Below are positions 22,619 to 64,000 of a stretch of DNA of 64,000 nt, in pieces. Each line of letters starts with the position of its first letter. Within the stretch, counting starts at the first letter, position 1. The translations under genes and the position numbers were made by a program. A model generated the notes under the pieces. The model saw nothing but the letters and a program-made list of their open reading frames with translations. It had not been told where the DNA came from and ran no database searches. Origin of the DNA: Scenedesmus sp. PABB004 (Eukaryota); contig CM026547.1 of NCBI GenBank assembly GCA_014905635.1, positions 2,852,001 to 2,916,000 on the forward strand, read 5' to 3'.

Positions 22619-22680
<62 letters not shown>

Positions 22681-23640
22681 GCCGGGCGGGCAGCCCGGCA
22701 GCGGCAACGGCGGCAGCGGCATGCCGCGCGCGGCGAGCGCCGCCTCGGCGAGCAGCTTCGACGCAGCGGCCGCGCTCGCGAGCGGGGTCGGGCCGGGCGC
22801 GGCGCTGCCGCTGCCGGGTCTGAGCGAGGCAGGCGGCCGCGGCCGGCAGCAGCGACCGGGCGACGCCTCGCGATCAGGTGAGCGCGCAGGCCCGCTGCTG
22901 GCGCCTGCCCTGGCCGCGCGTTGCCGCGGCCGCTGGCCCGCTGACGCCGTGCCGCCGGCCGCCGCACGCAGACATGGCGCGCGCCGAGTCGCTGGACCCC
23001 GACTACTTCACGCAGAGCATGAGCCTGCTGTGCCCGCTGGACGACGAGCACCTGCCCATGGAGGCAGCAAACCTCAAGACGCGCCAGGCGCGGCGCGCGC
23101 CGTGCGGCGCGCGAGCGGCGAGGGGCGCGCGCGCGGCGCCGGCCGCCCGCTCAGGGCGCCGCCACCGCCGCGCCGCAGGTCGAGGTCGCGCTGTCGCAGC
23201 TCAAGGTCGCGTCGCTGGGCGCGGAGGAGCACCTGGTGTGCCTGGAGGCGCTCGCGCGGCTGGCGTGGTCGGACGACGCGGTGCGCGAGGTCATCGCGTC
23301 GAGCGGCGGCGTGCGCGCGCTGGTCGACGCGATGACCCTGCACGCGCGCAGCGACGCGGTGCAGTGCCACGGTTGCCTCGCGCTCATGAGCCTCGTGCGC
23401 GGCGAGGGCGAGGTGTGCCAGAGCAACCAGTGGCACATCGCCAAGGCGGGAGCGATCGAGGCCATCGCGGCGGCGATGCAGGCGTTTGCCGGCAGCAGCA
23501 TGGTGCAGCTCAGCGTGCTGCTCTGCCTCATCCCGCTGGCCCTGGAGAACGCGATGATGCAGGCCCACGTCACGCAGGCGCGCCGCGCCGCGCGGCACCG
23601 TGCGGCACCGCGCGGCGGCGGCTGCGTGAGCACGCACGCA

Positions 23641-24594: not shown

Positions 24595-24749
24595 GTCGGG
24601 CGCAGAGGGCTTTGCTCATCGGGTCGGACTTGCGCGGTGAGACATCTGCGCAACACCTGGGTCGGCTTGTAGCTGCAAGCGGCCAGGACTCTGCCGCCGC
24701 CGCCGCCTGTTCGTGCGCTGCAGTTTGGCTGTTGCTCGAGTTGCCCCAG

Positions 24750-26067: not shown

Positions 26068-26323
26068 CGCGCAGCGCGCCGAGCGGAGCGGCGGCGGAGC
26101 GCGAGCAGCGGCGCCGGCGTGCGGGAGGGCGGCGGGCGAGCGCGCAGGTGCCGGACGCGGGCGGTGCGATCGGGGCGAGGGAATGCGGGCGGGGCAGCGC
26201 GGGTCGGTCCTCGCGGCTCAGCGCGCCGCGAGCAGTCGCGCGGGCGGGACCAGCCTGGCGCCGCCGGGCGCGCGCGCCCTCTTCTGCGCTGAGCGTGTGT
26301 CTCTGCGCGCGCCGAATTGCACG

Positions 26324-28324
<2,001 letters not shown>

Positions 28325-28808
28325 GAGTAATGCGGCGGCGCCGGGCGGCGCGGGGCGGCGCAGGGAGGGGGGGGGGGGCAGGGGGGCGGACGCGCGGACG
28401 CTGCGGGCGCAGGCGCTGGATGCTGCTGCAGCTGAGCACTGAGGGGCTTTGCTTTGGCCGCGTTGGCAGCTAGGCGGGCGGCTGCAACCTGCACTTTATG
28501 GACGCCGCCCCGCCGCCAACGCAGCGCCGGCCGGTCACCGTGCGCACAGCGCGCGCAGCAGCTGCTGCGCGCCTCCGCAGGACCGCACACACGGCCCACG
28601 GCGCCGCCGCGCCCGCTGATGGTACACTCGCTGCGGACGCGCCAGCCGCCCCCGCACGCCGCGCCAGCGCCGCGCGACGCGCGAGCTCGCGCGGGCCCCC
28701 GCCCCGCGCCCCCGCCCGCCCGCCCGCCCGCCCGCGGCCAGCCGCCGCCGCCAGCCCCGCCAGCCGCTGCTGGCGCCGCCGCGGTGCAGACTGCTCGCTG
28801 CTCGCTGC

Positions 28809-31155
28809 TCACTCCTGCGCGCCCTGCTCTGCGAGGCGTGGGTTCTTGGTGTCGAGGTCGAGGTCGTGCCCCGTGATGCGGCGGTACATGTCCAGCACGT
28901 CCTCCACGGTGCTCTCAAAGTGCGTGGTGGGGTCGTAGCCCTTGCTGATGAAGCAGCCGTCACTGAACGCCCGGCGGAGGGCGGAGGGCGGAGGGCGGGC
29001 GGAGGGCGGGGCGGCGGCGGCGCGCGGCGGGAGGGCGGGCGTCGGCGCCGCGCGGGGAGGGCGGGCGGGCGCGGGGGCGCGCGCAGGCGGCGGCGCGGCG
29101 CGGCGCGCGCGGCGCGCACGCGCTGCCGTCTGCCAGGGGCTCGTGGACGTCGACGATGCTGACAAACTTCTCGTCGATCGGCCCCAGCAGCGCGAGCCCG
29201 GGCGCGAGCTCCGCCTCGGGCGCGCTGCTCTCCACGGTCGTCGACACAAACGCGACCCACTTGTTGTTGGCCGCCACGTTGTGCGCGTAGGAGCAGCAGA
29301 AGACATACATGTCTGACGCCACGCGCCGGGGCGGGGGGCAGGGTGGGCGGGGCGAGCAGGCGCGCCGCGGGCGCAGGCGCGGCCCCGGCCGCCCAGGCCC
29401 CCGAGCGCGTCGGCGGCGCGGCGCGGCGGCCGCACCTGACCGCCGGCCGATCTGCTTCTGCGGTAGGATGATCTGCACGCTGTGCGCATTGTCGGTGTTG
29501 GGGATGGGGTGGCTGAGGATGCACACCGCGCGCACCACGCGCGACGTCGGCCGCGTCTTGCCCGGGAAGTAGCTGGGGTCGCCCACCTGCCGCGCCCCAC
29601 GCCGCCGCCGCACGTGCGGGCTGGGTCGGCGCGCGGGCGCGGCGCGGCACGGCGCGCGGGCCGCCCGCCGCCGCTGCCGTCGCCGCTGCCGCCGCTGCCG
29701 GCGCGCGGCAGGGCCGCTCGCTGCCGCTGCCGCTGCCGCCGCCCGCCCGCGCCCCCGCCGCGGCGCGCCGCCGCCGCACCACGAACTTGCACTGTGCGGT
29801 CTCGCCCTCGCTGCTCACGCCGACCGCGCGGCCGTCGTCGCCGTAGACCACCGCCGCGTCGGCCTTGTGCAGCATGTACGTCCCGCCGTACACCGCGCTC
29901 AGGCGAGCAAACGCCTGCGGCGCATGCGGCGCACGCAGCGCGCGCTCAGCCGGCGGGGCGCCCGCGCCCGCCCGCCGCGCTGCTGCGCCCGCCGCGCTGC
30001 GCCCGCTGCTCGCCGCCGGCGCGCTGCACGCCGGCGCGTCGCCGCCGCCGCCGCGCCTGGGGCAGCTCTCCGAGGCCGTAGCGCGGGTATATGTAGGGGC
30101 TGGTGAGGCCGTCGTAGCGCGTGAGCGAGTCGTGGTAGAGCTTGACCTTGAGCACCGTGGGCAGCGCGGGCGCGTCGAGGTAGGCGTCGTCGCGGTGCAG
30201 TGCGAGCGCGTGGCCGATGAACTCGACGGTCTGGCCGTCGAGGCCGTAGTACGCGTACAGCTGGGCCATGGTCATGGTGGCGAGGTCGAGGCCCTTGTGC
30301 GTGGTCGGGTCCTTGGGGTCGTAGTCCTGCACGTAGCTGCGTGCTCGCAGCGCGGCGCGGCGCGGCGTCCGCGGGCGCGCCCGTGGCATGCCCGCCGCCG
30401 CCGCCGCGCCGGCGGCCGGCGGCCAGCGCGCCGCGCGCGCGCCGCCCCCGGGCGTGCGCCGCCGCGGCGCCCGCGGCGGCGGCGCCCCGCCGCTCACATG
30501 AAGAAGTTGCGCGCGCGGCGCTTCTCGAACAGGCCCATGAGCGGCGAGCGCAGCGCCTCCATGTCGGTCGCGGGGACCTTGTACGCCTTGCCCTTGTTCA
30601 CGACGTAGCTGCCGTCGACGGCCTTGAACTCCAGGTACTTGGTGACGTCGGTGTAGATGAGCACGCGCACGAGCTTGCCGTTGGCCATCATGAACTTGGG
30701 CACCATGTCCACGTTGTAGTCGCGGCTCGCGCCCAGCTCCTTGGGCACCGCCTGCCCCGGCCGGAACTTCTCCCACAGCTGCCGGACGGCACGGGCGGCG
30801 CGGGGGCGGGCTGGCGGCGCGGCCGCGGCCCGCGCAGGGGGCGGGAGGGGCGGGAGGGGAGGGGAGGGGCCCACCCGACAGTCGGTTGCTGCTCCGCCCG
30901 CCCGCCGCACCTGGTTGAGGTTGAGGGACGCGGACTCGCCCCCGTAGTAGCTGTTGCGATCCATGTGCAGCACCTGCGCCCCGGGGGCGTGAGGCGCGCC
31001 CTGCACGCCGGCCGGGGCCGGGAGCTGCGGATGCGCGCGCCCCCGGCCGCGCCCGGCGCCGACCGCACCTTCAGCCCCGACACGCTGAGCAGGCCGCTGA
31101 TGATGCACTCCTTCAGCCCCGTCCCCAGCACGATGGCGTCGTACTCGCCGTCCAT
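28809..31155 (-). CDS. GDI1: Rab GDP dissociation inhibitor
   Basis: MDGEYDAIVLGTGLKECIISGLLSV, VLHMDRNSYYGGESASLNL, DYNVDMVPKFMMANG, SPYIYPRYGLGELPQ, YDPTTHFESTVEDV. Confidence 0.96.
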
Positions 31156-31356
31156 GGCGGCGCCGCTTGCTGCGCCTGCTGCTGCTGCTCCCTCGCGCGC
31201 AACAAGCCGCAGTGGCTGGGGTGGGGGGAAGCGGAGGCGGTGGAGTGGGCGGCGCTGGAGTGGGCGGCGCCAGGTGGGGAGGGCGGGGCGGGCTCGCGAC
31301 CGGAGAAACGCCGCCGCTGCACCGCCGCCGCGCCGCCGCACGCCGCCTCGCAAGAA

Positions 31357-31361
31357 TTACA
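31357..31361 (-). promoter_or_regulatory. Putative TGTAA polyadenylation signal for the RRM gene
   Basis: TTACA on + strand, about 430 nt downstream of the RRM stop. Confidence 0.45.
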
Positions 31362-31794
31362 GGGCGGGCCGCGCCGCCGGGCGTGAATGGCACGCCCACC
31401 GCGCGCGGCCGCCCGGCCGCAGGAGCAGCCTCGTGAAGCCCGACTGCCGCGGCGCGCGCGCACGCGGCAACGCACACACACAACGCGACGACGCCGCCGT
31501 GCACACAAAGCGAGACCGCCCTGAATAGCCTCAAAACTCAAGGCGGCGGCAGAGACGGCAGCCAGCCACGTCACACACGTCAGCGAGCAACGCACGCACA
31601 GCGCACACAAAAACGTCCGACCGTCGGTCGCCCCCACACCAGCACCACCACCGCGCCCCCGTGTCACGAAAGGGAGGAGTACACAGCCTGCCCTGCGTTG
31701 ATGAGCAGCAAGCAAGCACACGCGGCGCCGGCGCGGGCGCGCCCGCCGCGGCGCGCCGTTGGCGCCGCGGCGGCGCGCCGCCCGCGCCGGCGGC

Positions 31795-33033
31795 TCAGAA
31801 GCTGCGCGTCGAGACGCGCACGCTGATGCGCTGGTGCTGCAGGCGCGCGCCGTCGAGCTCGCGCTCCGCGCGCGCCGTGGCGGCGGGGCCGACGGCCTCG
31901 TGGAAGACCACAAAGCCGTACCCTAAGCTCAGCGCGGTCACGGGGTGGCGCACGATCCAGACCTTGCTGATCGGCCCCACACTCGAGAACAGCTCCACCA
32001 GCGCGCGCTCGCTCACGTCGCCGGGCAGCCCGCCGACAAAGACGCCGCGCGGACCGCCGCCCGGCGCCGCCGCGACGCCGCCGTGCTCCCACCCGCCCTC
32101 GCCGCGCGCGGCGCCCGCGTCGGCGGCGCCGTGCAGCGGCGACGGCGTGGGCGCGGAGCCGCACGACTCGCTGCCGCCGCCCCCGGACGGCGGCACGCGC
32201 CGCCCGCAGCGCCACGGCGAGTCGGGCGTCAGGGCGGCCGCGGACGCCGCCGCGCGCCGCGGGGGCGTGCCCTGCCCACCGCCGGCGCCAGCCGCATGCC
32301 GCCCTGGGCCGCGCGAGCGCGGCGCGTCCTCCTCGGGCGGCTGCGCGGCGCCCTGCCTGCCGTGGGAGGCGCGGCCGTGCGGGTGGTCGCGCGCGCCGAC
32401 GGCGCCGCCGCCGCCGCGGCCGCCGACCGCGCTGTGCGGGCGCTGCACGTGGAGGCTGCTGCAGGAGCTCAGGCTGTCGGCCACGCTCGCGGCGTCGTCG
32501 TCGTTGTCGGCGATGCTGTGCACCGTGGAGGGGGCGTCATACGACCAGCCGCGACCGACCGACGGCAGCGACTCGAGGAAGCGCGCCACCAGCGGGCGCA
32601 GCCCCTGGCCGCCGCCGCCGCCCTGGTCCGCGCCGCGGCCGCCGCTGGCGCCGCCGCGCGGGCTGTAGCAGGGGCTGCCCCGCTTGTTGAGCAGCGACAG
32701 CGCCGCGCTCAGCGACACGCGCACGGGCGTGAGCGCGCCCGCGGCCGAGCTGCCGGCGCGGCTGGGCAGCGTGTCCGGCTCGCCGCCGCCGCCGTCGGCG
32801 TCGCCCGGCTTGCCGGCCTGCGCCCGCGCACGAGCGCGCACGAGTCAGCTTCGAGCGGCCAGCGAGCGGTGCGCCGCTGGCGGCGGGCGCGCGGCGCGCG
32901 CCGCCGCGTCGTCTCCGGCCTCTGTCAATGGCCCAGCGGCGCCCCGGGGCCGCACCTGGGCCTCCGGCGCCGCATGCTCGCCACCGCTGCAGCTCAAACC
33001 TGGCTCAGTTGGTGAAAGCGGCGCTTGAAGCAT
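31795..33033 (-). CDS. Low-complexity protein with one C-terminal RRM
   Basis: VFVGGLP (RNP2), LVELFSSVGPISKVWIVRHPVT, LGYGFVVF (RNP1), ELDGARL. First exon inferred as MLQAPLSP...EAQ|AGKPG; an alternative start is possible at 33150. Confidence 0.8.
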
Positions 33034-38853: not shown

Positions 38854-40037
38854 CAGCAAAGAGGCGCCACTGCAGAGCACGTACGCGGCGCTGGCCAGCC
38901 CCAACGGCGGCGCGCCGCCGCGGGCGCGCATCGAGTTCGCGCTGCAGGCGATTGAGGGCAGGGACCTCACGCCCCGTCGCAGCAAGCACGCCAGCGCCGG
39001 TAGCGCCGAGGCCGCCCAGGCCGCCGGCAGCACAAGCGGGGGCGCGGCGCCCCTGGCGCCAGGCGACAAGCGCGAGCACAACAGGGACGCGGAGCGGGCG
39101 GCCGACACAGCCCGCACGCACGAGGCCAAGCCCACCACGCCCTGCGCCGCCGCCGCGGGCGGCGACGGGGTGGCGGGGCCGCTGCAGCCGGCAGCGCACC
39201 CGGGCTCGCCGCCGCGGGCCAGCGGGGTGCTGGCCGCGGCCTCGCTAGGCAAGCTCGAGCCCAAAGACAAGGAGGCCAGCAGCAGGGACGCGGCGGCAGG
39301 CGGCGAGCAGGAGCGCGAGCACGAGCGGCAGCGGCAGCGCGACAGGGACAAGGAGCGGACGGCAGTGGCGGCCGCCGCCGCCCGCGCGGACGAGCCCGCG
39401 AGGCCCGCAGCGCCCCACGCCGCGGCGGAGGGCAGCCGCGGGGCGGCGGAGCCGCCGCGGCCGGCGGCGCGCACGGGCTCACCGCAGCGCGGCGGCCGCA
39501 GCGGCAAGGGCGTGCTGGGCGCCACCTCGCTGGGCATCCCTGAGCTGGACGCCAAGCTGGAGGCGGCCGCGGCGCGGCGGGCGCGGCGTGGGGGCGCGCT
39601 GCTGCGCAGCGTGCCGCTGAGCCGCCAGCTGAGCAGCGACGAGGTGTGGGCCGCTGCGTGCAAGGTGCGGCGGGCAGGGACGGCCCAGGCGCAGGGCGCC
39701 TGCGCGGGCCCCCGGCCGGGGCCGGCCACGCGTCGTGCCCACCGCTGCGCCTGCCCCGCAGCTGACCAAGGCCACGTCGGAGCTGCTGGACGGCGAGGCG
39801 GCTGCAGCGCGGCGGCGCAGCCGCGCTCAGCGGGAGCTGCCCGCGCGCCTGGGCGGGCGGCTGCTGGCGCAGGTGGACCCCGCAGCGCGGCTGCCCGCCG
39901 CCGGCGAGGCGCACACCCGGCAGATGCAGGCGGCGGCGGACGCGTTCCGCCGTCACATGGCGGCGCCGTGGGTCGCGGCGCTGCCTGGGGGCGGCAGCTT
40001 TTCGATGCCGGCTGAGCTCAGGGGTGTGCTGTGGTGA
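37386..40037 (+). CDS. Uncharacterised low-complexity (R/E-, Q/H-rich) protein with an internal duplicated exon pair
   Basis: ATG 37386, splice-compatible short exons, a long Q/H-rich open frame and a protein-like C-terminus (...SSDEVWAAACK|LTKATSELL...LRGVLW*). No domain recognised. Confidence 0.55.
37440..38340. repeat. Imperfect tandem duplication (period about 455-475 bp) of an intron-exon-intron-exon unit
   Basis: A 49-nt segment at 37551-37599 recurs at 38006-38054 with one mismatch; the flanking introns and the following exon are also similar. Confidence 0.88.
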
Positions 40038-40205
40038 CAGGGGCGTGCGGACGCGTGCGCCTGCGGTGACAACTCGCTGCCGCTCGCTCGAGCGACCGCG
40101 CCGACCCGCCCGTCACCGTGAACGCCGCCCCCGCGGCCGCGGCGGGCTCGACGGCGCGACTGCCGCCGCCCGCCCGTGTGCCGCCGCACGGCCGGCGCCC
40201 CGCGC

Positions 40206-42191
<1,986 letters not shown>

Positions 42192-43015
42192 GGCCGGCGC
42201 TCCGGGGCGCGGCGCCGCTGCTGCGACAGCAGCAGCTGCCCGCCGCCAACGCGGTGGGGCTCCCGCAGGCGCCCGGTGCGCGCGGAGAGTCTGTCAGGCG
42301 GGCCGCTCAAGCGCGCCTGGGTGCGGTGTGGCGCGAGCCGGCGGCGGGCGGCGCGCTGCTGCGCAGCAGTGCAGCGCGGCGGCGGGGTGCCGCGTGTGCG
42401 GGCGGGGGCGGCAGCGGGCTGCGTGTGCTGGCTGAGTGAAACAGGTGCATCACGCTGCGGCGGCAGCGCCGCGTCCCGCCGCGACGGGTCTTGGCCGCCG
42501 CTCAAACGCGGTCGGTCGCGGAGGGCATGGCTACGGGGCGCGCAGCTGCCCGGCACTCAGCGCCTCCGATCGACCGCGGCGCCAGGGAGGCGAGCGCGCC
42601 GCCGCACGCGCCAGCCGCGACGCGCACACCAACACCAGCGCTCGCAGGCGCCGCGCGCGCACCGCCGCCGCCGGCCGCCCTTCTTGCGCTGGACCGCGCC
42701 GGGACGACGATCAGCGGGCTCCGTTGCTCGCGCGCCGCCCCACGCGCCCGCGGCCGTGCGGGCGACGGGGCAGCAGAGCGGCGCGAGGCGACGGCGGCGG
42801 GCCCAGGTGCGCACCGGATGCCCTGCGCGCGGCCAGGATCCGCGGGCGCTGATGGGGATCGGCGGGCGTGGGGGCTGCCGGGCTGTCGGGGCGCGGCGCC
42901 CGCAACCGCCGCGGCCCGCCGCTGCTGCCGCACGCGCAGGCCCGCGCGGCGGCGCGTGAGCGCGGCGCTGCCCGGAGCGGCGCCAGCGGCTCCGGCGCGC
43001 CCCGACGCGCGCGCC

Positions 43016-44919: not shown

Positions 44920-47900
44920 TGGTGCAGCAGCAGCAGCAGGTGCAGCAGCAGGTGCAGCAGCCGTCGCTGCCGTCGCTGCCGTCGCAGCAGCAGGTGCAGG
45001 TGCAGCAGCAGGAGCAGCAGCTGGCGAGCCCGCTGCAGGACCAGCGGCAGCAGCCAGACCAGCAGTCCGCCGCCCCCGGTCCGGCGGCGGCGGGCGGGGG
45101 CCAAGCCAAGGCCGAGGGCCAGCAGCAGCCGACGGAGGCAGCGGAGGCGCCGAGTATAGGCGGGCCTGCTGCGGCCGTCACGGCGGCGGCAGTGCCGCAG
45201 CAGCAGCCGCAGCCGCAGCCGCCGCCGCCGGCGCCGACGCCGACGCAGCAGCCGCAGCACGAGGGCGCGGCGCCGCCGGCGCAGGCGCAGCAGGCGCCGC
45301 CGCCCGGCGCCGCCAGCCAGGCGGAGGAGGATGCCGTCCACGAGTGAGGGGCGGCGGGGCGGTGCAGCGTTGGGCGGCGCGGCCAGAGGCCCGGCAGGCG
45401 CCGCGACGTCCGCGCCCACCGCGCCTGCCACGCGCACGGCTGACTGCCGCCGTGCCGCCGCCGCCGCCGCTGCCGCCGCCCCGCCAGGTGGATCGACGAG
45501 GTCTTCCTGCCCGCCGTCAACGCGGCGGGGCCGTGCGGGTGGGACATGGTCCACGTCACGCGCACCATACACGACCAGGCCGCCGCCGCCGGCGACCAGG
45601 CGCGCGCGCGCGCGGCGGCCGCGCCGCGCCCGCCAGGCCCCCTGGCCCCGCCACCGCGCGGCCGCCGCGGCGCCACGCTCACGCTGCGCGGCGCGGCCGC
45701 GGCCGCGCGCGCAGGTGAGCGTCGCGGCCACGGCCGCCATCCTGGGCCAGTTTGGCGCGAGCGGCTACCCCTGGTTCCGCCTGCACCCCAAGGGCCGCGG
45801 CGTCGTCGTCGTGCGCCCCGGCGGGCTGCGCGCGTTCAGCTTTGTGGAGGAGTACTTTGGGGAGCTGCACAGCGGTGCGCGGCGCACGCGCGCGCCCGCG
45901 CGGCACGCAACGCGCGGCGCGCACGCAGCACGCCGCGCACGGCGCGCGCGTGCCGACCCCGCGCCGCCCTCCCCCGCCGGCCCCTCGGCTCGCCCCCGCC
46001 GACCCCTCGCGCGCCTCGCGCGCAGGGTGGCGCTGGTTTGAGATCCAGGACGCGCTCAAGCGCCTGACCGGGAGTGAGCTGCCCGACTTTTACAACATCC
46101 TGCTCGAGCGCCCGACCGACGACCCCGACGGCTACGACCTGCTGTTTGTGGACGCCGCGTTCATGGGGTCGTTCGCCAGCCGCATGAGCCACTCCTGCAC
46201 GCCAAACTGCCAGGCGCGGCGCGGCGCGGCGCGGCGCGGCCCCGCGCGGGGCTGGAGGCGCGGGGGCAGGGGGCGGGGCCGCGGCGCGCGAGGGGGCGCG
46301 GGGGCGGCGCGAGGGGGAGGGCGCGGGGGCGGCGCCGTCGCCGCAACGCGCGCGCGGCGCGGCGCGCAGGCGGTGGTCGTGTCGTGCGGCGGCAAGCTCA
46401 CGGTCGCGCTGTACACCATCCGCGACGTGCGGCCGGGCGAGGAGCTGACGTTTGACTACAGCAGCGTCACCGAGAGCGAGGACGAGTTCAAGCAGGCCTT
46501 CTGCATGTGCTCCACGCGCCACTGCCGCGGCTCGTACCTCCACTACACCGGCGGCAAGGCCTACATGCAGGTGCGCACGCGCCGCGCCGGCGCGCGCACG
46601 CGCGCCGCGCCCGGCGCACGCACGCGCCGCCCGCCGGCGCGCGGGGAGATGCTCGCCGCGCCGCCCTGGCGCCGCGATCGCGCCGCCGCGGTCGCCCGCG
46701 CGCGCGCCCACCCTGCTCGCGCGCCCGCGGCGCAGGTGCTGGAGGCGCTGCACACCTTTCTCGACCGCCAGGTGCTGCTGCTGCGCTGCTGCACCGAGCC
46801 GGTGACCGAGGCCGACCGCGCGCGCCTCGGCGCGGCGGGGCTGCGCGGCAGCGCGCTCGGGCGTGCCGACGTGCCCGCCAACGCGGCGGTGCCGGACTGG
46901 CTCGCCAAGTGGGCGGCGCTGACGCTGGAGTTTGTGCAGCTGGAGCGCCAGCTGCTGCCAGAGGTGCGTGGGGGTCCGGGGCACGGGCGGCGTGCCGCGC
47001 CGACCTGCCGCCGTGCGCCGACCCCGCCGCCGCGCCGCCGCGCCGCCGCGCGCCGCCGCAGGAGCTGCAGGCGCTGCCGCCGCCGCTGACGCAGTCGGCC
47101 GCGGACAGCGTCGCCGCGGCGGTGGGCGTGGAGCTGAACCGGCTGCAGAACATCGTCATCTCCCTGGACAAGGCCAAGCACTGCCTGCGCCAGCCCGGCC
47201 AGGGCCGGGGGCCGCCGCTCGTGATGCTCAGCGACGACCAGGCCGCGGAGCACCTCTGGAACGGGCCGCGCAGCGTGGCCAAGCGCGCCGTGCGCGCCGC
47301 CGCGGCCGCGGTGCTCGGCGACGAGGTGCGCACGCGCGGCGCCCTGGCAGCCCGCCCGCCCGCACGCGCCGCGCCCTCTCCCGCGCGCGCCGCGCTGCAG
47401 CTCACCGCCCCCTCCCCTCCCTGCCCGCTGCCCCGCCCGCCAGGGCGCGCTCGGCGTGCTGACCGCGTCCTCGCCGGCCGAGTTTGAGGCCGCCGCCGCG
47501 GCGCTCGCGGCGTCATGCCCGCTGCTGGCGTCCCTCATTGACCAGGCGGCGCAGCCGGCGCGCGGGCGGCGGCCGCGCGGCGCGCGCTGGCGCGGCTCGT
47601 CGCGACGCTGCGCGAGGTGGACGTCGTGGCGGGCGGCGGCCACACGCGCGCGGCGGACGTGCTGCAGCTGTATGCGCACACGCAGGTGCAGCGCGGCGCG
47701 GCGCGGCGCGGCGCGGCGCGGGGCGCGGCGCCGCAGGTTGGGCGCCGCTCGCGCGACCCCTGCCCCGCTGCCCCCGCGCGGCGCCAGGTGTGGTTTGCCG
47801 CGGGCGGCGGCTACGTGAGCTTCAGCTCGCCGCCGCTGCAGCTGCACGACGAGCTGCTCTCAATGCACGGTGGCCTCGACGCCTCCGCCGCCCGCGGCGC

Positions 47901-52202: not shown

Positions 52203-52591
52203 GTGACGCCACACGCGCTACCGTCCGAGGTGCCGCTACCCCCTGAGCATTGCCCCAGCGGCGCGCGCTGCCTCTGCTGCCCGCGCTGCTGCGCGGGGCC
52301 GCGCTGGGGCGTCTGTTGCTCGCGCGGCGGCCCGAACAGCGTCGTTCTGGATGCCAGTGTGGCGTTGGTCGCGGCGTGGGCGGCGACGGGCAGCGAGCGC
52401 GCGGCAGCAGTCACAAAACAATGACAAGCGCGTAGGTGCTTAGCCTGGCGGCGGCGCGGCCGGCGCACAGGCACGGCCACCTGCTCCGGCACGCGCACCA
52501 CCATCGCCGCCGCCGCCGTCGCAGCCGCCGACCGCCGCCCCGTCGCCGCTGCTGCCGCCGCTGCCGCACGCCGCACGGCGCCGCCGCCGCC

Positions 52592-54194
52592 ATGGCCAGC
52601 GCGGCGGCGTGCAGCATCGAGCTGCCGGAGCAGCCCATGGTGGGCGCCAGGGGCTGGTGGCGCGGGGCGGCGCCGGCCGCCGCTCGCGCGCCAGCCGCCG
52701 CCCACGCGCGCCCGCGCGCGGCGCAGGACTGCGCCATCTCGCCCGCCGCGCCGCTGCTGGCGTCGGGCCTGGTCAACGGGGGCGTGGTGCTGCACCGCTA
52801 CGAGCCGGCCGACGGCGCCGCGCCCGCGCCCGACAGCGACGACGAGGACAACACGGGCGGGCACGAGGCCGCCACCGGCGGCGCGGGCGGGGGCGGCGCC
52901 CAGCAGCAGCCGCGCCCGGCGTACGTCGCGCGCGAGGTGCTGTCGCGGCCGAGCAAGAAGGGCGCGTCGTGCCGCGCGCTCGCGTGGGCGGCCGGCGGCG
53001 GCGGCCTCGCGGCGGGCTTTGCCACGGGCACGCTGCTCTCGCTCGACCCGGCCAGCGGCCGGCCGGCCGCGCGGCTCACGCGCGCGCACGGCGCGGGCGT
53101 GACGCGGCTGCTGGGCCTGCCGGAGCAGCCGGCGCTGCTCGCGGCGGGCGACGACGACGGCGCCCTGTGCGTGTGGGACCTCCGCGCGCCGGCCGCGCCG
53201 GCGCGGCGCTACGACGCGCACAGCGACTTTGTGTCGGGCCTGGCCTGCGCGCCGCGCGCGCACGCGCTGCTCGCGGTCAGCGGCGACGGCACGCTCAGCG
53301 CCCACGACCTGCGCGGGGGCAAGACGCTGGGGCACAGCGAAACGGACGCCGACGACGAGCTGCTCTCGGGTGCGCGGCGGCGGGGCGGCGCCGCGGCGCG
53401 CTCGCAGGCGGCTGGGCAGGCGGCAGCGGCGGGCAGGGGGCGGCGGCGGGCGCGCGCGCGCGCGCGGCCGCAGCCCACGGCCGCCGCCCCGCCCCGCCCC
53501 GCCGCCCACGGCCGCCGCCCCGCCCCGCCCCGCCGCGCCGCGCGCGCGTGCGGCGCCAGTCGCGGTGGTCAAGGGCGGCAAGAAGGTCGTGTGCGGCGGG
53601 CAGAGCGGCGTGCTGGCGCTGTGGAGCTGGGGCTACTGGGCGGACTGCAGCGACCGCTTCCCGGGGCACCCCGAGAGCGTCGACGCGCTCGCGGCGTTTG
53701 ACGACGACACGCTCATCACCGGCAGCAGCGACGGCGCGCTGCGCATCGTGAGCGTGCTGCCCAACCGCCTCGTCGGCGTGCTCGGCACGCACCCGGGCGG
53801 GCTGCCCGTGGAGCGGCTCGCGCTGTCCGACGACCGCGCCGTGCTCGCGAGCACGGGGCACGACGCGGTGGTGAAGCTGTGGGACCTCGCTGTGCTGCGC
53901 GACGACGACGGCGAGGAGGAGGAGGAGGAGGAGCAGGGCGAGCAGGAGCCGGCGGCAGCGGAGGAGCAGCAACAGCAGCAGGCGCCCGCAGCGGCCGGCG
54001 CCGCCGCTGCAGCGGGTGCCAAGCGGCGAAAGCAGGGCGGCGGCGGCGGCGGCAGCAGCAGCGGCGACGACGACAGCGACAGCGACGGCGACGCGCCACG
54101 CGGCGGCAGGAAGAAGCGGCAGCCGCGCGAGAAGACGGCGATGCGGCGTGGCAAGGCCGGCGGCGGCGCCAACTTCTTTGCCGACATGCTCTGA
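52592..54194 (+). CDS. WDR55: WD40-repeat protein 55 (Jip5-like)
   Basis: AAGDDDGALCVWDLR, AHSDFVSG, AVSGDGTLSAHDLR, DDELLS|VAVVKGGKKVVCG, DCSDRFPGHPESVD, acidic/basic tail ending NFFADML. Confidence 0.9.
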
Positions 54195-56085: not shown

Positions 56086-56530
56086 GGCGTCGGTGGGCGT
56101 CGTGGGACGCACGCAGCGGCGGGCTTGCGCTCGGCGCCGGAGGCGAGTGCGGCCTCGGCCAACAGAATGCTGTCGTGAAGGGCACCGCGGCGCGCGGCGG
56201 GGCCTGGCTGCGCGGTCGTGATGCCGTGCGAGCGATCACTGACGGCAGGTTGCGGCGGGTCAACTTGCGCGGCCGTGGGGTTCGAGGGACTCGGGCGTGT
56301 GCAGGCACGCCTCCACGACTTTGCTCCGGCCGCGCCGCCGTGACCGGTGCGCCACCCCCTGGGCTATCGCGCACCTTCAGCAGTCCCCCCGGCACCGCAC
56401 CGCCATCCCCGCGTGCCCCCACAGCCACGGGCACACTCCCCATCTCGCGAGGCTGCCCGCCGTCTCCCGCGCGCCCTGCGCCGCGCCGGCCCGCCGCACG
56501 CCTCTCACAGCGTCCAGGAACCTTTCCGCC

Positions 56531-57918
56531 ATGCACCTGACCCGCCAGCACGTCGCCAGCGGCGCCTGCCAGGCCAGGCGGGCGCGTGCTGCTGTCGTGG
56601 CCGCCCCCGGGGGGCGGCCTCGACACGCGGCCCGGCCGCCCGCCGCGACGGCGGCGCCCGAGGGGCTCAGCTACAAGGCGGCGGGCGTGGACATCGCCGC
56701 GGGCGACGAGCTCGTGCGCCGCATCCAGAAGCTCAACCCGAGCATCGGCGGCTTCAGCGGGCTCGTGCCCTTTGGCGACTCCTTCCTCGTCGCCGGCACC
56801 GACGGCGTCGGCACGAAGCTCAAGCTCGCGTTCGACATGAACAAGCACGACACGGTCGGCATCGACCTCGTGGCCATGAGCGTGAACGACATCGTGACCA
56901 GCGGCGCCGCGCCGATGTTCTTCCTCGACTACTACGCCACCGGCGCGCTCGACGTCGACGCCGCGGAGCAGGCACGCACCGACGCGCCGGGCGGTGGCGC
57001 CGCGCGCCGCGCGCGCTGCGCGCCACGCCCTGCGCGCTGCGCGCCCCAGCCTGGCCGCCCGCCGCGGCGGGCCGCCAGCCGCCGCCCGCCGCTCACAGCC
57101 GCCCCCCCCGCCCTTCCTCTCCCCCCCCCTCCCCAGGTCATCAAGGGCATCGTGGAGGGCTGCCGCCAGTCGGGGTGCCAGCTGCTGGGCGGCGAGACGG
57201 CGGAGATGCCCGGCTTTTACGCGGCGGGCGAGTACGACCTCGCAGGCTTTGCCGTCGGCAGCGTGAAGCAGGACCGCGTCATCGACGGCAAGTCCATCGC
57301 CCCCGGCGACGTCGTGCTCGGCATGGCCTCGAGCGGCGTGCACAGCAACGGCTTCAGCCTCGTGCGCAAGGTGCTCGAGGTCTCGGGCACGAGCCTGCAC
57401 GACCCCGCGCCCTGGGGCGGCGGCATCACCGCGGGCGCCGCGCTGCTGGAGCCGACCGTCATCTACGTCAAGCGCGTGCTCGCGCTGCACGACAAGGCAC
57501 GCGCCCGACGCCGCCGCCGCCGCCGCCGCCGCGCCACGCTGCGTGCTGGCGCCGGCCCGCCGTGCCTCACCCCGCCTCGCCCCGCCCGCGCCCGCGCCCG
57601 CGCCCGCGCGGCCGCCAGGTGCCGGTGAAGGGCCTCGTGCACATCACTGGCGGCGGCATGACCGAGAACATCCCGCGCGTCATCCCCAAGGGCCTGGGCG
57701 TGCAGATCTCGACGTCGGCGTGGGCGCTGCCGCCGATGTTCCAGTGGATCCAGGAGAGCGGGCGCATCAGCGACGCCGAGATGCGGCGCACGTTCAACTG
57801 CGGCATCGGCATGGTCGCGGTCGTCCCGCCCGAGGCGGTCGCCGCCGCGAAGCAGGCCGACCCGGGGCTGTTCGAGCTCGGCAAGGTCGTGACCGGCAGC
57901 GGCGTGACCTACGTCTGA
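56531..57918 (+). CDS. purM: Phosphoribosylformylglycinamidine cyclo-ligase (AIR synthetase), organelle-targeted
   Basis: [79 protein letters not shown]. Confidence 0.96.
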
Positions 57919-58693: not shown

Positions 58694-59164
58694 TCAGAAC
58701 GGGCAGACCGCGCTTGCGAGGCGCACGAGGCCGCGCGGGCACATGCTGGGGTGGTCGCTCACCTCCTCGCGCTGCGTGACGCAGGCGAGGATGGTGTCAG
58801 TCAGCACGTCCCGCCCGCCCCCGAGCCCGTCCTCGAGCAGCAGGTCGGTGTGCGTCTTGCCCGGCAGCAGCGCGACGTGGCTCGCCACGCCCGCCGCGCT
58901 CAGCGCGTCGCTCAGCAGCAGGCTGCTCGACGCCGGCACCGACTTGTCCGCAGTGCCGTGCAGCAGCAGCACGGGCGGCATGAACGCGGCGACCCCCGGC
59001 GGCGCGGCGCGCGCAGCGTGCAGCGGCGACAGCAGCTCGTACGCGACCTGCGCCCGCGGCGCGGCCGGGGGCCGGGGGTGAGTGGGCCGGGCCGCCCCTG
59101 CTCCCCGCCGAGCGGCCGCGCGGCGGGGAGGCGGTCCGCCGCCCGCCTCCCCTCCCCGGGCGGG

Positions 59165-59200
<36 letters not shown>

Positions 59201-60484
59201 GCCGCGGGCCGCACCCGGCCGTCGACGCTCATGATGGTGTCCAGCAGCTCCTTGTACAGCCCCCGCGCGTGCAGGTGCGCGGCGAGGCCCTCCAGGTCGT
59301 AGGCGCCGCTCACGCCCACAAACCCCGCGAGCGCCGCCGGGTGCCACAGCGGCGCGCCGCCGAGCACCGCCGCGCCGGTCGCGGCCTGCGCCGCCTGGCT
59401 GAGCAGCGCGCGCATCGCGAGCTGCCCACCCGCGCTCTGCCCGACCAGCCACACGCGCTCCGGGTCGCCGCCGCGGCGCTCAATCTTGCGCAGCACCCAC
59501 GCGATGCCGGTGTTGACGTCCTCGAGCATGTCCAGCGCGCTGCCCTGCGGCGCCGCCGCGCGCGCGGCGGCGACAACAACGCGGCGGCGTCAACGCGGCG
59601 GCGACAGCGCGGCGGCGTCAGCGCCGCGGCGGCAGCGGCGGCGCAGGGCGGGGCGTCGCCCGGGGGACGTGGGCGCGGCCGCGGGGGCGGGGGCGCCTGC
59701 GGGCGCGCGCCTGCGGGAAGTTCCTGTAGTCGAGGCAGGCTGTGATGACGCCCGCGTCGCACAGGCGGCGGCCGAGCAGCGCGCCCCAGGCGCGGTAGCC
59801 GATCGTCCACGCGCCGCCCGTGACAAACACGACCACCGGCAGCGCCGCGCCGCCGGCGCCGGCGGTCTTGGGCAGGTAGAGGTCGAGGGCCTGCCGCGGC
59901 TGCGGCGGGGCGGCGGGCGGCGCGTCGGGGCCGCGCCGCCGGCGGGGCGGCGGGCGGCGAGCCAGCCGCGCGGCGCCGGCCAGCCGCGCGCGCGGGGCGC
60001 GGCCGGCGGCGGCGCACCTTGCGGCCGTACGCGACGCCGCGCGTGACGCGCGGGCTGGTGGCGTAGTAGTGTATCATTTGCAGGAAGCCGGGCAGCAGGA
60101 AGAGCGCGTACAGCGCCAGCCGCGCCGCCTGCGCGAGCCAGAGCCAGCCGAAGCGCAGGTACCTGCGCCGCGCGGCGCGCGGGCGGCGGCGAGCGCGGCG
60201 GCGTGTGCGCTGCGCCGGCGCCGCCCAGTGCGGCGTGCGCCCGCCCGCGCCGCTGTGCCGCCCACGGCCGCGCTGCGGCGCACGCACGTCCAAAGGCGCA
60301 GCGCGAGGCCCGCCAGCTCCCAGGCCTTGAGCACCGCCGCCTCCACCCACTGCACCGGGCTCAGGGCCACGGCCAGGTCGGCAAGCGAGTCGCCGCTGAT
60401 GCTGTGCAGGCGCCTGTGCCGCGCGACGCCGCCGCCACTGCTCTGCCGCGCCGAGAGCAGCAGCGCGCGCGTGGGCGCCGCCAT
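58694..60484 (-). CDS. ICME: Isoprenylcysteine alpha-carbonyl methylesterase (ICME/ICMEL family)
   Basis: [61 protein letters not shown], ends VCPF like plant ICME proteins. Confidence 0.9.
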
Positions 60485-60814
60485 GGCGGCGGACCCTGCC
60501 CACGCCGGACGGCAAGGACACCCGGCGCACGCCGGAAGGCCGTGCGCGGCGCTGGGGCACGCGGTGCGGTGCGCGGGCGAGAGGGCGCGCGATTGCCAAC
60601 AACGTCTGACGGGGGCCGAGGCCGGACAGACGCGGCCCGCCCGCTCCGCTGTCGGCGGCGGATGCCGCGGGAGTGGCGCGCGGGAGGGGGGCGGCGGTCA
60701 GGGCCTGGGCGCGTCGGTGAAGTGACGGCGGCGGTTGCGCGGGGCGCGGCGGCGGGTGTGCGCGCGCCGTCAGGCCTGGCCCGAGTTGCACAGCTCCCAG
60801 GCGTCCAGGCCAGC

Positions 60815-63246
60815 TCACCCAGCGCCACCGCCGAGCTCCCCGAGCTCCTCGCCCGCCGGCTCGAACGCGCCCGGGTCCAGGCCGCCGTGCCGCGCGCGCT
60901 CTGAGACTCGCCGCGCGGCCCAGCTCACGCCGCACGCCGCCTCAAACTCCGCCAGGCTCACCGCCGTGCCCAGGCCCCACACGCCGCCGGGCGCCCAGTC
61001 CGCCTCGCACGGCGGCGCGGCCGCCGGCGCCGGCGCCGGTTCCGGCGCGCCGCCGCCAGCCCCGCCCGCCGCCTCGCCGCGCAGCACCTGCAGCACGCGC
61101 GCCTGCGACGCGGCGCGCGCCGCCGCGTCGACACAGCCGCTGCCCTGGTAGCTCGCGGCGCGCGCGCTGCGCTCCCACTGGTGGAACGCGAGCGGCAGCG
61201 CGGGCGCCGCGACGCGCCAGCCGCGCGTGGCCATGCGGGCGAGCATGTAGGACTCCTCCCCGAAGAACAGGTGCGGCAGGTGGGGGCAGTACGGCACCTC
61301 CGCCAGCCACGCCGACGACGCAAAGCTGAAGCCCGCCGCCCAGAACAGGCTCGGCACCGGGCCGGCCGGGCGGCGGCGCAGCGTGCTGCGGGCAGGGGGT
61401 GGGGCGAGGGGTGAGGGGGAGGCGCGGCGGGTGGGCGGCGCGCGCACGCCAGGGCGGCCGGGCGCCGCGCCGCGCGCCGCACCGCGCGCGGATGCGCAGC
61501 AGCCCGTCGCCGTCAAAGCCGCTCGCACACAGCAGCGTCGCGGGGGCGTCCTCTGGCGCGGCCGCCGCGGCGCCGTCGCCGCTGTAGCCGGGCGGGTAGG
61601 TCGAGAGCGACACGCGGGCGCTGCCCGCGGCCGCCTGCGCCGCGGCGAGCTGCTGCAGGCAGAGCTCGTCCCAGTGGCGCGCGAAGCGCATGTGCGCGTC
61701 GACCTGCAACACAAACTCCTCGCCGCCCCACAGCGCCGCCGCGAGGGCGCGCGCGGCGACGGGCCCCGCGGCGGCGCGCCAGTGCAGCCGCGCCTCGCGC
61801 ACCTGCGCGTGCGACCGCGCGTGGCAGCGGCGTGGGCGCGCGCGCGGCAGCTCCCGCCCAGAGCGCCCCACCGCGGCCGCGGCGCGCGCGGGCACCTGGT
61901 GGCGGAACGGCGCGGTGCTCGCGCCGCCCGCGACGCGCGTGAGGTGCGCGTCGGCGTCGGGGTCGACCTGCCACACCACACCGACGGTCACGCGCTCGGG
62001 GCGCGCGGCCTGGCGGAAGAGGTCGCGCAGCGTCCACTGCGTCTCGGGGTCGCGGAACGACGCCACGCTCACAAAGATGCGCGGCGCCGCAGGGCCCCCG
62101 GGCGGCGGCGCGCGGGGTGCGGGCAGCGGCGGCGCGGCCGCGAGCGGCAGTGCCGCGCCGCCGCGCTCGCCGCCCTCGCCGCCCTCGCCCGCCGCGCCCG
62201 CGCCGCCGCCGGAGCCCGCGCCGCCGGCGGCGTAGAAGAAGGCGGTGATGGAGTAGCGGTGCCGGTGCGCGGGCAGCACCTCGTGCTGCAGGCCGGCCTC
62301 AAACACGAGGACCCGCCCCGCCAGCGGCGCCACGAGCGTGGCGGGCTCGCCGCGCAGGTGCCCGAGCGGCTCGCCGCCGCCGCCGCTGTCGCCGTGCGTC
62401 GCGTGGGCCGCGTTGTACAGCGCCAGCGCCCCGCCGTCGCGCTGCGGGTCCCAGCCGAGGTTGAGGTACAACAGCGCCGTCACGCTGCGCCCCGGCACCG
62501 CGGCCGACGCGTCCGCGTGGCGCACGTAGCGCGCGCCGCCGCCGGGGTAGCACGCGACCTGCACGCTCACCCGCCCGCCCACGTCGTAGCTGCGGCGCGG
62601 CGCGGCGCGTCGGCGGGCGCGGCGGGAGCGGCCGCCGGGCGCGGCCCGCGCGGCGCGCGGCCGCGCAGACCCACCCCTGCTGCTGCAGCTGCGACCGCAG
62701 GCCGTCCAGCATCGCCACCGCCGCCGCCAGCAGCGGCGCGCCGCCCGCGGCGAGCTCGTCGGCGCTGGCCCAGCTCGCGACGTCGCCGCGCGCCGCGGCG
62801 TCGGCCCAGCGCCCCCCGGCCGCCGCTGCGCCCATGCCCGGGCGCCGCCCCCGTGCCGCGAGCCAAGCCTCCGCCGCGGCCGCCACGGCCTGCGGCGCGC
62901 GGCGGCGGCGGCGGCGTCTGAGCCGCGTGCGGCGGAGAGGAGCGGGCGCGCCGCCGGCAGCGAGCAGCGGTGCCCGACGTGCGCGCGCCTGCGCCTCGCC
63001 CTCCGACAGCGCGCCGTCCAGGACGCACGCCCGGGCGTCGCCCAGGAGCGGCAGCACGAGGCGCCGCCGGGCGATGGCCGTGGCCGCCGCCCCGGGCGGC
63101 ACCGCCGCGCCCGCGCTCGGCGCAGCGCCGCGCGGCGACCGCGGCGTCGCGGCGACGGCCGACGCCCCGTCGGCCGCCGCAGCGCTGACGATCTTGCGCT
63201 TGACGTTGTCGGGGAGCAGCGCCGCCAGCGCCGCGAGGTCGTCCAT
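60815..63246 (-). CDS. Fusion: EGLN/PhyA-type 2OG-Fe(II) prolyl 4-hydroxylase + GT60 Gnt1-like hydroxyproline GlcNAc-transferase
   Basis: P4H: RGDVASW, VACYPGGGARYVRHAD, TALLYLNLGW, GGAL, PLAGRVLVF, HEVLPAHRHRYSITAFF. GT60: IFVSVASFRDPE, LQVDAHMRF, LSTYPPGY, FWAAGFSF, EVPYCPHLPHLFFGEE, FHQWER. The two domains are contiguous in ORF 60942..62582. Confidence 0.85.
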
Positions 63247-64000
63247 GGCCGCGCAGCGCGCGCGCCGACAGCAGCAGCGGGCGGCGCGGGCGGCGCGGGC
63301 GGCGCGGGCGGCGCGGGCGGCGCGGGCGCGGGCGCCAGCCACGAGGCGTGGGTCGCGGCGCAGAGCTAGGCGGCCGAGCGTGGGGCCCGACTTTTCTCCG
63401 CGCGCGCGCGACCCGCCGGCGGTTGCGGCGTGACGAGCGGCACAGCGGCGCCGCGCCGCCGCCGCCGTCCAGAGGCCTCGCCCGCCCGCGCGGAGCCCTC
63501 ATTTGTGTTCCTCCGCTGCGTCGACCGCGCCCGCCCTCGCGCCGCGACCGAGGGCAGCAGAAACGCCGAAACGCAGGCCAACGCGCCCCGCCCGGGCCAA
63601 TCCGGCGACGCCCAGCACGCGTTAGCGACTACCCCGGTCCCGACGCCGCCGCGGGCGCGCGCGCGCGCCCGGAGCAGCACCCGAGCGCTCGAGCGCGCGG
63701 CGCCGCCGCCGCCGGCGATGCGGGCATGAGGGCGCCCCGCGCCGCGGGCCAGGACACGCAGAGGTGGGCGGGGGCTCTGGGGGAGCAGCCAGCCCGCGCG
63801 GCCGCCGCCGCGGCGCGCGCCGAGCTGCAGCCAGCCCCGCGCCGGCGGCGCTGCCCCCCGCCGCCGGCGGCCGCGCCCCGGTCGCCGGCTGCCCGCGCGC
63901 GCGCGCCCCCAGCTCGCGCTCCGCGTCAGAAGCTCGGGTGCGTGCCGCGCCAGCTCACGCGCCGCGCGGCGGGGGGCCGCAGGTGCGGGCGCGATGCCTC

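Follow-up and report, generated by a model that had tools for sequence, protein, structure and literature searches.

A probable PhyA-type prolyl hydroxylase joined to a GT60 glycosyltransferase in the green alga Scenedesmus sp. PABB004, a further example of an already published fused enzyme

The hydroxylase PhyA and the glycosyltransferase Gnt1 of Dictyostelium and Toxoplasma are two separate polypeptides, and the locus described here raises the question of whether a green alga carries the same two activities on one polypeptide and, if so, on which protein such an enzyme would act. The locus occupies positions 60,815 to 63,246, on the minus strand, of a 64,000-nucleotide stretch of contig CM026547.1 of Scenedesmus sp. 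PABB004 (the window), and it represents a single nuclear gene of a chlorophycean green alga with very high GC content. The NCBI entry that matches it, from the same organism, bears only the label "hypothetical protein". We give a probability of roughly 0.78 to the reading that this one gene encodes a PhyA-type hydroxylase, a linker and a GT60 transferase in a single enzyme, which by inference hydroxylates Skp1 and then modifies it with GlcNAc. The window is about 80% GC and contains 346 stop-to-stop frames of at least 120 aa, so an open frame by itself is weak evidence and the case has to be built from the domains, the gene structure and the relatives. Across positions 1-59078 of the window, a Pfam scan of the 95 long frames of at least 330 aa, a length cut that would miss short genes such as Skp1, gave unrelated housekeeping genes only.

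The derived gene model comprises four exons running from the ATG at 63246 to the TGA at 60817-60815, and its product has 718 residues. The exons are separated by three GT..AG introns of 85, 93 and 97 nt and, consequently, the gene is not a single open reading frame; with this qualification, the one-gene fusion proposed in an earlier note is confirmed, both domains lying on one polypeptide. The motifs quoted in that note, namely MDDLAALAALLPDNVKRK at the start codon, YVRHAD, HEV, HRYSIT, IFVSVASFRDPE, QVDAHMRF, LFFGEE and the terminal TGA, were all recovered on the minus strand where it had placed them, both by three-frame translation and in the DNA. As it had also described, the hydroxylase core passes through a Gly/Ala/Pro linker into GT60 sequence in one frame without a stop (positions 61485-62588 of the window, minus strand, 368 aa), and this uninterrupted stretch continues until 60% of the GT60 domain has been encoded.

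Exon 1 (62675..63246; minus strand, as for all features given below) begins with the start codon and encodes residues 1-190 and two bases of codon 191, which take in an N-terminal motif, low-complexity sequence and the first half of the hydroxylase domain. It is the same as in the deposited model (P0151), and the N-termini of homologues match. Intron 1 (62590..62674, 85 nt) changes the frame and splits the hydroxylase domain, and its removal restores the PHD-type stretch upstream of the HxD motif in an alignment with EGLN2. Exon 2 (61896..62589) carries, without a change of frame, the catalytic core of the hydroxylase, the linker and the beginning of the GT60 domain. It is followed by intron 2 (61803..61895, 93 nt), which is in frame and is also spliced out in the deposited model; its removal gives a spacing, read from the sequences, nearly as in the Pleodorina homologue P0152. 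Exon 3 (61483..61802) encodes the central part of the GT60 domain, including the DxH motif Asp457-Ala-His459 at 61700-61692, and intron 3 (61386..61482, 97 nt) changes the frame and splits this domain, the match to Pfam PF11397 ending at profile position 198 before it and restarting at 207 after it. Exon 4 (60815..61385) encodes the C-terminal part from LFFGEE onward (PF11397 positions 207-349, E 7.7e-20) and the stop codon. Over residues 1-718 this independently derived exon structure is identical to that of P0151. Splicing and a single mRNA across both domains are predicted from sequence logic and homology.

The hydroxylase domain (approximately residues 50-311) is a PHD/PhyA-type Fe(II)/2-oxoglutarate dioxygenase with the full set of active-site residues. 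The Fe(II) ligands His215-x-Asp217 (HAD) are encoded at 62511..62519, with the distal His293 and the 2-oxoglutarate-binding Arg302 downstream in the same exon, and these four residues, as well as Asp457 and His459 of the transferase, fall in columns conserved to at least 90% in an alignment of 79 sequences (A1). According to the accessible text of PMC7864055, they correspond in the Dictyostelium enzyme (DdPhyA) to His191, Asp193, His266 and Arg276. Assignment to the PHD/PhyA-type hydroxylases, as opposed to the secretory enzymes of the collagen type, was borne out by a sequence search of the PDB. This search returned EGLN2 (E 2.4e-16), Pseudomonas PPHD (2.2e-11) and DdPhyA (6T8M, 3.4e-06), and its 39 matches at E<=1 included none named as a collagen-type prolyl 4-hydroxylase. 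Furthermore, in a Foldseek search with the AF2 model all of the matches listed were of the PHD type (target TM-scores 0.61-0.79; 6T8M, E 5.4e-11). The best matches in both sequence and fold are the animal EGLN1-3/PHD1-3, which, unlike the algal protein, have no GT60 partner, in many cases bear an N-terminal MYND zinc finger (seen as an alignment block) and act on HIF-alpha. Because animal PHDs outscore DdPhyA against the hydroxylase domain by sequence, the PhyA identity is supported chiefly by the fusion to GT60 and by kinship to a published Volvox entry. In addition, the domain stops directly after its last strand, as DdPhyA does, its final Tyr310 aligning with the final residue of the DdPhyA chain; a short C-terminus is called distinctive of DdPhyA in the accessible text of PMC7864055.

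The GT60 domain (approximately residues 360-705) is a glycosyltransferase domain with a DxH metal motif, and the DxH variant is a hallmark of Gnt1. Its two PF11397 matches, at 120.9 and 72.1 bits against a curated cut-off of 21, together cover profile positions 2-198 and 207-349 of 352 and, with the DxH present, confirm the GT60 identity assigned in the earlier note. Both profiles, PF13640 (2OG-FeII_Oxy_3, E 4.5e-17) and PF11397 (GlcNAc, E 1.1e-34), match the same single translation. One relative bears the automatic JGI name [quoted passage not shown] and is the sole match so named. Homologue searches made to obtain named Gnt1, PhyA and Golgi GT60 references gave 9, 7 and 12 proteins, almost none of them with a name, low-complexity words probably crowding the candidates, and a phmmer search of the PDB with the N-terminal half of the GT60 domain gave a single match at chance level (E 1).

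The two domains are connected by a Gly/Ala/Pro-rich linker (residues 312-359; 62085..62228). Its approximately 48 residues are predicted to be disordered, with pLDDT below 50 at residues 316-355 of the AF2 model, in which pLDDT is mostly above 90 in the hydroxylase and GT60 domains. The protein as a whole is very rich in Ala, Gly and Arg, Ala making up 24%. It appears to have neither signal peptide nor anchor, in agreement with the earlier reading, as judged by a Kyte-Doolittle scan only: the N-terminus is acidic, and the maximum in a 19-residue window over residues 1-718 is 1.65, at an Ala-rich stretch (residues 165-183) inside the hydroxylase domain that AF2 models largely as helices. By the same measure an N-terminal anchor was found in 0 of 17 single-copy GT60 relatives.

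The novelty that the earlier note had implied for such a fusion does not hold, since the architecture is already in print (text and table of PMC6437050; PMC8724618; title of van der Wel et al. 2019); the algal gene is a further example of this published fused enzyme. The table of Florimond et al. (PMC6437050) lists nine phyA-gnt1 fusions, in Pythium, Stylonychia, Ectocarpus, Guillardia, Rhizoclosmatium, Naegleria, Emiliania, Volvox carteri and Symbiodinium. The Pythium enzyme, called "dual function" in the title of the paper on it (van der Wel, Gas-Pascual and West 2019, Glycobiology 29:705), likewise places a PHD-type hydroxylase ahead of a GT60 domain within a single polypeptide; in the Pythium ultimum row of Fig. 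S2 of PMC6437050 the hydroxylase block ends with the remark "rest is gnt1". Pythium, however, is an oomycete and so belongs to another supergroup than the green alga, and the extreme Ala/Gly/Arg richness is a feature of the algal protein. The Volvox carteri protein XP_002955656.1 ("phyA-gnt1" in PMC6437050, recorded there solely as a database sequence without experiment) shares with the algal protein the class Chlorophyceae and the architecture, although Volvox is placed in the Volvocales and the present alga in the Sphaeropleales. One homologue, P0013, matches exon 2 with E 4.8e-59 and 56% identity, has the N-terminal motif in common with the algal protein and is identical in its first 28 residues to the Volvox row of the published alignment; from sequence it is the likely counterpart of XP_002955656.1. 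Relatives that carry names include those of Pleodorina, Edaphochlamys and Chlamydomonas incerta.

The function proposed for the algal enzyme is modelled on those of Dictyostelium, Toxoplasma and Pythium. The Dictyostelium and Toxoplasma PhyA and Gnt1 have the same catalytic residues and carry out the two chemistries that the algal domains would share by analogy, but as separate polypeptides, whereas in the alga the domains are joined through the linker. The hydroxylase domain would use O2 and 2-oxoglutarate to form 4-hydroxyproline at a conserved Pro in the C-terminal region of Skp1, and the GT60 domain would then transfer alpha-GlcNAc from UDP-GlcNAc onto that hydroxyproline; the glycan so begun would shift the pairing of Skp1 with F-box proteins in SCF ubiquitin ligases. 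A Skp1 target, oxygen sensing and substrate channelling, all proposed in the earlier note, are putative features of the algal enzyme. Most likely the linkage holds both activities at a 1:1 ratio and commits both to the same substrate, neither of which needs true channelling. Kinetics of the Pythium fusion protein reportedly gave no evidence for processive handling and, if this is right, channelling is the least secure element of the proposed function.

Three other explanations of the locus have to be weighed, two of which concern the gene itself. Open frames are cheap at 80% GC, and one older gene model of Chlamydomonas reinhardtii is entered as PhyA only, so that the fusion might be merely apparent and two separate proteins might arise from adjacent genes or alternative transcripts. 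In the translation of the gene model, however, neither a stop codon nor a Met lies between the domains, there being no stop past the hydroxylase domain and no Met from there to the DxH motif at which a transferase might begin. The hydroxylase also precedes GT60 on one polypeptide in 104 of 159 collected relatives, a set skewed to fused proteins because the query contained both domains; linkers in 97 homologues range from 9 to 172 residues (median 59). The Pythium fusion protein, moreover, is said to have been expressed and to be active, and separate proteins seem the least probable account. It is scarcely more probable that the gene is longer and that its stop is spliced out, in which case it would extend into an alpha/beta-hydrolase (isoprenylcysteine methylesterase-like) domain to give a fusion of three enzymes, as in the deposited model of 1098 residues. 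The TGA does lie within a good donor-like site (GG|GTGAGC), which P0151 uses; against this, the resulting "intron" would be 405 nt, compared with 85-167 nt for the seven others of that model, and the hydrolase part occurs in 1 of 165 proteins, P0151 itself. The homologues P0152, P0153 and P0008 end where the 718-residue model ends, 2-3 residues past a common AFE/AFL position, the junction (residues 708-732) has pLDDT below 50 in the AF2 model, and the downstream frame is opened by an ATG of its own at 60484. P0151 therefore probably merges two genes.

The remaining explanation accepts the fused enzyme and assigns it a main substrate other than Skp1 in the cytosol, which we regard as unlikely, if less so than the two preceding accounts. 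It has in its favour that the hydroxylase domain is about equally close to animal HIF hydroxylases, the bacterial EF-Tu hydroxylase and DdPhyA, and that enzymes of this hydroxylase clade differ in their substrates, as far as the accessible text of PMC7864055 goes. Skp1, however, is the substrate in every organism for which the accessible text reports a test of the PhyA/Gnt1 pair, and a green-alga fusion falls inside the published PHYa clade. The target site NDFTPEEE, moreover, is widespread in the eukaryote Skp1 sequences recovered, one of them on a contig of 78% GC. A fused PhyA-Gnt1-type enzyme acting on Skp1 is thus the preferred reading.

How such an enzyme might find Skp1 is suggested by the conserved N-terminal motif (residues 10-21, LLPDNVKRKIVS; 63184..63219), which is predicted to form a helix, an LP turn and a second helix (H2-9 and H13-28 in the AF2 model, pLDDT 53-63). 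It occurs in most relatives of the PhyA family with the consensus (M)D...(L/V)(S/A)xLP(D/E)x(V/L)(K/Q)(R/L)xI(L/V)S, or LPxx(V/L)xxxI(L/V) in short form. The pattern LPxx[VLIAM]xxx[IVL][LVIAG] was found within the first 45 residues of 30 of 51 homologues, against a mean of 0.49 and a maximum of 4 in 1000 shuffles. The motif resembles the LP turn and first helix of an F-box, and in the place of F-box helices 2 and 3 low-complexity sequence follows. We tentatively suggest, at rather long odds, that it is a mini F-box by which the enzyme might dock where free Skp1 binds F-boxes, so that the disordered C-terminal tail with the target Pro stays accessible to the active sites. Such docking, if true, would account for two statements in the accessible text of PMC7864055, that peptides make poor substrates and that determinants of recognition lie beyond the active site. 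Alternatively, the motif could be UBM-like and bind ubiquitin, UBM having given weak sub-threshold Pfam matches in 2 of 25 homologues (E 0.044 and 0.12). F-box Pfam families matched 0 of 25 homologues at E<=10; in the algal protein itself, the first 35 residues matched neither F-box nor UBM families at E<=10, and exon 1 matched no Pfam family at E<=0.1. Fig. S2 of PMC6437050 shows the motif in its Dictyostelium and Volvox rows, and the passages of the literature that were searched offered no interpretation of it; it is possibly a new detail.

Since the fusion is in print and a member of the group has already been characterised, the locus adds little on the architecture of the enzyme. A database entry called "hypothetical protein" gains a functional name and, in its deposited form, is probably shown to be a merger of two genes. 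In addition, the range of the Skp1 hydroxylation and glycosylation pathway, inferred here from the gene, is extended to the Sphaeropleales, a group that includes biomass algae. Oxygen sensing in a self-oxygenating cell would, if true, be of physiological interest, and the same question applies to Chlamydomonas and Volvox and is not specific to this locus. The N-terminal motif is the sole lead that could newly inform how enzymes of this kind find Skp1.

The gene under study is read on the minus strand as four exons, and its spliced model, derived from the DNA, gives a fusion product of 718 residues. Exon 1 (63246-62675) begins with ATG and is followed by exon 2 (62589-61896), exon 3 (61802-61483) and exon 4 (61385-60815), which ends in TGA at 60817-60815. 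They are separated by three GT..AG introns, that is, intron 1 (62674-62590, 85 nt), intron 2 (61895-61803, 93 nt) and intron 3 (61482-61386, 97 nt); intron 2 is in frame, and introns 1 and 3 change the frame, so the gene is not one open frame. The earlier note had described the two domains as running in frame, and this is true of the stretch from the hydroxylase core through the linker into the beginning of GT60, which shares one uninterrupted exon, but not of the whole gene. The motifs it quoted were all found on the minus strand in a three-frame translation of 60500-63600, and its coordinates for the gene ends are exact. Just 5' of the ATG, at 63262-63330 on the minus strand, a GC-only 12-mer (gcc gcc cgc gcc) is repeated in tandem about five times, presumably within the 5' untranslated region.

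The G+C content is about 80% across the whole window, which contains 346 stop-to-stop frames of at least 120 aa, and at such G+C content a bare open frame proves little about a fusion. The assignment of both domains is borne out by Pfam in one translation (window:61485-62588:-), with 2OG-FeII_Oxy_3 at residues 9-119 (E 4.5e-17) and GlcNAc/PF11397 at residues 171-367 (profile 2-198 of 352, E 1.1e-34); the remainder of PF11397 (profile 207-349, E 7.7e-20) is in the last exon. The model translation has no stop codon after the hydroxylase domain and, between this domain and the DxH motif, no Met able to start a separate transferase. In addition, the protein deposited at NCBI, P0151 ("hypothetical protein HT031_000571 [Scenedesmus sp. 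PABB004]"), is identical to the derived model over residues 1-718, and therefore an independent gene call picked the same four exons.

Past residue 718, P0151 bypasses the TGA by means of a donor-like GG|GTGAGC that itself contains the TGA, and resumes after a 405-nt gap in an alpha/beta-hydrolase coded at 60412-58697. The alpha/beta-hydrolase gene lies directly 3' of the fusion gene (58697-60484, minus); its precomputed Pfam families in P0151 are COesterase, Peptidase_S9, Abhydrolase_3 and BD-FAE, and its hydrophobic N-terminal segment is like that of isoprenylcysteine methylesterases. P0151 is probably an over-extended merge of two genes, because the 405-nt gap contrasts with 85-167 nt in the other seven introns of its model, the hydrolase part occurs in only one of 165 proteins (P0151 itself), three algal homologues end at the same place as the 718-residue model and the junction has an AlphaFold2 pLDDT <50. 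Pfam applied to frames of at least 330 aa in positions 1-59078 of the window detected a NUBPL/ParA Fe-S protein (422-2533), FancD2 (3032-4426), MAM33 (12269-13330), FHA (20477-23332), a lipid-droplet hydrolase (24619-26217), aspartate-semialdehyde dehydrogenase (25869-28439), Rab GDI (28538-31537), RRM (31798-32844), a protein kinase (39956-42556), SET/SDG2 (45719-47086), WDR55 (52436-54191) and AIR synthase (56243-57915). By its predicted gene content, this region is an ordinary nuclear gene neighbourhood, and no further Skp1-pathway gene was seen among these frames.

The N-terminal 314 residues, searched against PDB sequences, match EGLN2 (E 2.4e-16), a Trichoplax PHD (E 4.7e-15), EGLN1 in many entries (E about 1e-14), Pseudomonas PPHD (E 2.2e-11) and Dictyostelium PhyA (DdPhyA, 6T8M, E 3.4e-06), and none of the 39 matches to this region at E<=1 is a collagen-type P4H by name. 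In an AlphaFold2 model built on a 79-sequence alignment, residues 50-311 have pLDDT mostly >90, and solely PHD-type enzymes are found among the top Foldseek matches listed from the PDB, one of them 6T8M (E 5.4e-11, target TM-score 0.70). His215, Asp217, His293 and Arg302 are in alignment columns conserved to at least 90% and correspond to His191, Asp193, His266 and Arg276 of DdPhyA, as named in passages of PMC7864055. According to the same passages, DdPhyA is unusual in that its chain stops directly past the last strand. In the PDB alignment, the end of the algal domain, Tyr310, aligns with the final residue of that chain, and it is at this equivalent point that the algal linker starts.

The linker is Gly/Ala/Pro-rich at residues 312-359, with pLDDT <50 at 316-355, and is ordinary for the fusion family, in which its length is 9-172 residues (median 59; n=97 with both domain edges placeable). 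The GT60 domain, about residues 360-705, has pLDDT 90-98 and a conserved Asp457-Ala-His459 in the alignment; no relative of it was found in the PDB by sequence. With regard to subcellular location, the protein has an acidic N-terminus, and the highest 19-residue Kyte-Doolittle value in residues 1-718 is 1.65, at residues 165-183, which are inside the hydroxylase domain and largely helices in the model. Of the GT60 copies in the collected relatives, 59 follow a hydroxylase domain, 73 belong to multi-copy proteins and five are in the reverse order; Kyte-Doolittle analysis gave no N-terminal anchor in any of the 17 single-copy GT60 proteins, several of which are clearly truncated fusion models. 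This bears only indirectly on a grouping with Golgi-type GT60, which the earlier note had named as a refuting outcome. The fusion protein is thus predicted to be one soluble polypeptide, and its two catalytic domains are intact and belong to the expected families.

With the 368-residue exon translation as query, a full HMMER search over 1.84 billion representatives gave 4126 proteins at E<=0.001, including 122 at E<=1e-30. The 150 matches listed and nine from a word-indexed search form a set of 159 relatives, which is skewed to fusions, since both domains were present in the query; in this skewed set, 104 relatives have the hydroxylase-then-GT60 order of the window protein, 47 show GT60 alone (many of them with multiple copies in tandem), five have GT60 then hydroxylase and three have hydroxylase only. 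Named relatives with both Pfam families are Pleodorina starrii, Edaphochlamys debaryana and Chlamydomonas incerta, and Gonium pectorale and Astrephomene gubernaculifera have partial models. The five reverse-order proteins (P0072, P0090, P0092, P0113 and P0132) mean that both orientations of domain joining have occurred. The top-scoring matches (P0001-P0004, P0009, P0010, P0015, P0017 and others) are long proteins, the longest of 2461 aa, in which GT60 is repeated in tandem three, four or more times and phmmer detected no hydroxylase domain.

The observation of the fusion is confirmed and its reading as hydroxylase plus GT60 is right; its implied novelty, however, does not stand, since the architecture has been published. 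The supplementary table of Florimond et al. (PMC6437050) has "phyA-gnt1" entries for Pythium ultimum, Stylonychia lemnae, Ectocarpus siliculosus, Guillardia theta, Rhizoclosmatium globosum, Naegleria gruberi, Emiliania huxleyi, Symbiodinium microadriaticum and the green alga Volvox carteri (XP_002955656.1); for Chlamydomonas reinhardtii, on the basis of an old gene model, it lists only PhyA. In the relative P0013, residues 1-28 are identical to the Volvox row of Fig. S2 (PMC6437050), and therefore the window protein is related to a published green-alga fusion. Before that, a passage of PMC3515798 had counted green algae (Chlamydomonas) as one of the groups with Skp1-modification-like genes in their genomes.

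Residues 10-21 (LLPDNVKRKIVS) are part of a motif at the extreme start of most relatives. Of 51 proteins with an initial Met whose first domain is the hydroxylase, 30 have LPxx[VLIAM]xxx[IVL][LVIAG] in their first 45 residues, an exact count that is generous in that the pattern was composed after inspecting the data; 1000 shuffles averaged 0.49 (maximum 4), and outside this region these proteins contain the pattern nine times in 30,481 residues. The N-terminal enrichment is large. AlphaFold2 folds the motif, at low confidence (pLDDT 53-63), as a helix at 2-9, an LP turn and a helix at 13-28. The F-box is a module that binds Skp1, and we take the motif, by eye, to resemble the LP turn and first helix of its consensus. 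It may be hypothesized that the motif is an F-box-like Skp1-binding element. In 25 homologues, Pfam gave no F-box at E<=10 and weak UBM matches in two, and the N-terminus of the window protein matches neither family. Fig. S2 of PMC6437050 likewise shows the motif for Dictyostelium, Rhizoclosmatium, Emiliania and Volvox. Passages of PMC7864055 place Skp1 recognition determinants outside the active site and describe a DdPhyA crystal construct without residues 1-59; no interpretation of the motif was found in the passages returned by literature searches, including those of that paper.

As to the target, the peptide pattern NDFTPEEE, a weak proxy for the alga's own Skp1, was found in 117 metagenome loci, many of which encode plain Skp1, such as L078 with Pfam Skp1 and Skp1_POZ. 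L036, a 64-kb metagenome contig of 78% G+C, carries on its minus strand around 1464-1700 the last Skp1 exons, ending in the NDFTPEEE site, and therefore the target Pro is kept in at least one extremely GC-rich eukaryote. L084 (74% G+C) is a similar Skp1 locus. By analogy with work on Dictyostelium, Toxoplasma and Pythium, the first domain would hydroxylate a Skp1 proline with O2 and 2-oxoglutarate, the second would add alpha-GlcNAc to the new hydroxyl, and the glycan may then alter the F-box partners of Skp1. The fused Pythium enzyme is reportedly active on Pythium Skp1, and its kinetics reportedly gave no sign of processive handling. Substrate channelling, which the earlier note had proposed for the algal enzyme, is unsupported; a putative oxygen-sensing role is plausible. 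Scenedesmus sp. PABB004 belongs to the Sphaeropleales, an order of chlorophycean algae, and its fusion gene adds a member to a published enzyme architecture, now in a new algal order, with the N-terminal LP motif as a modest lead.
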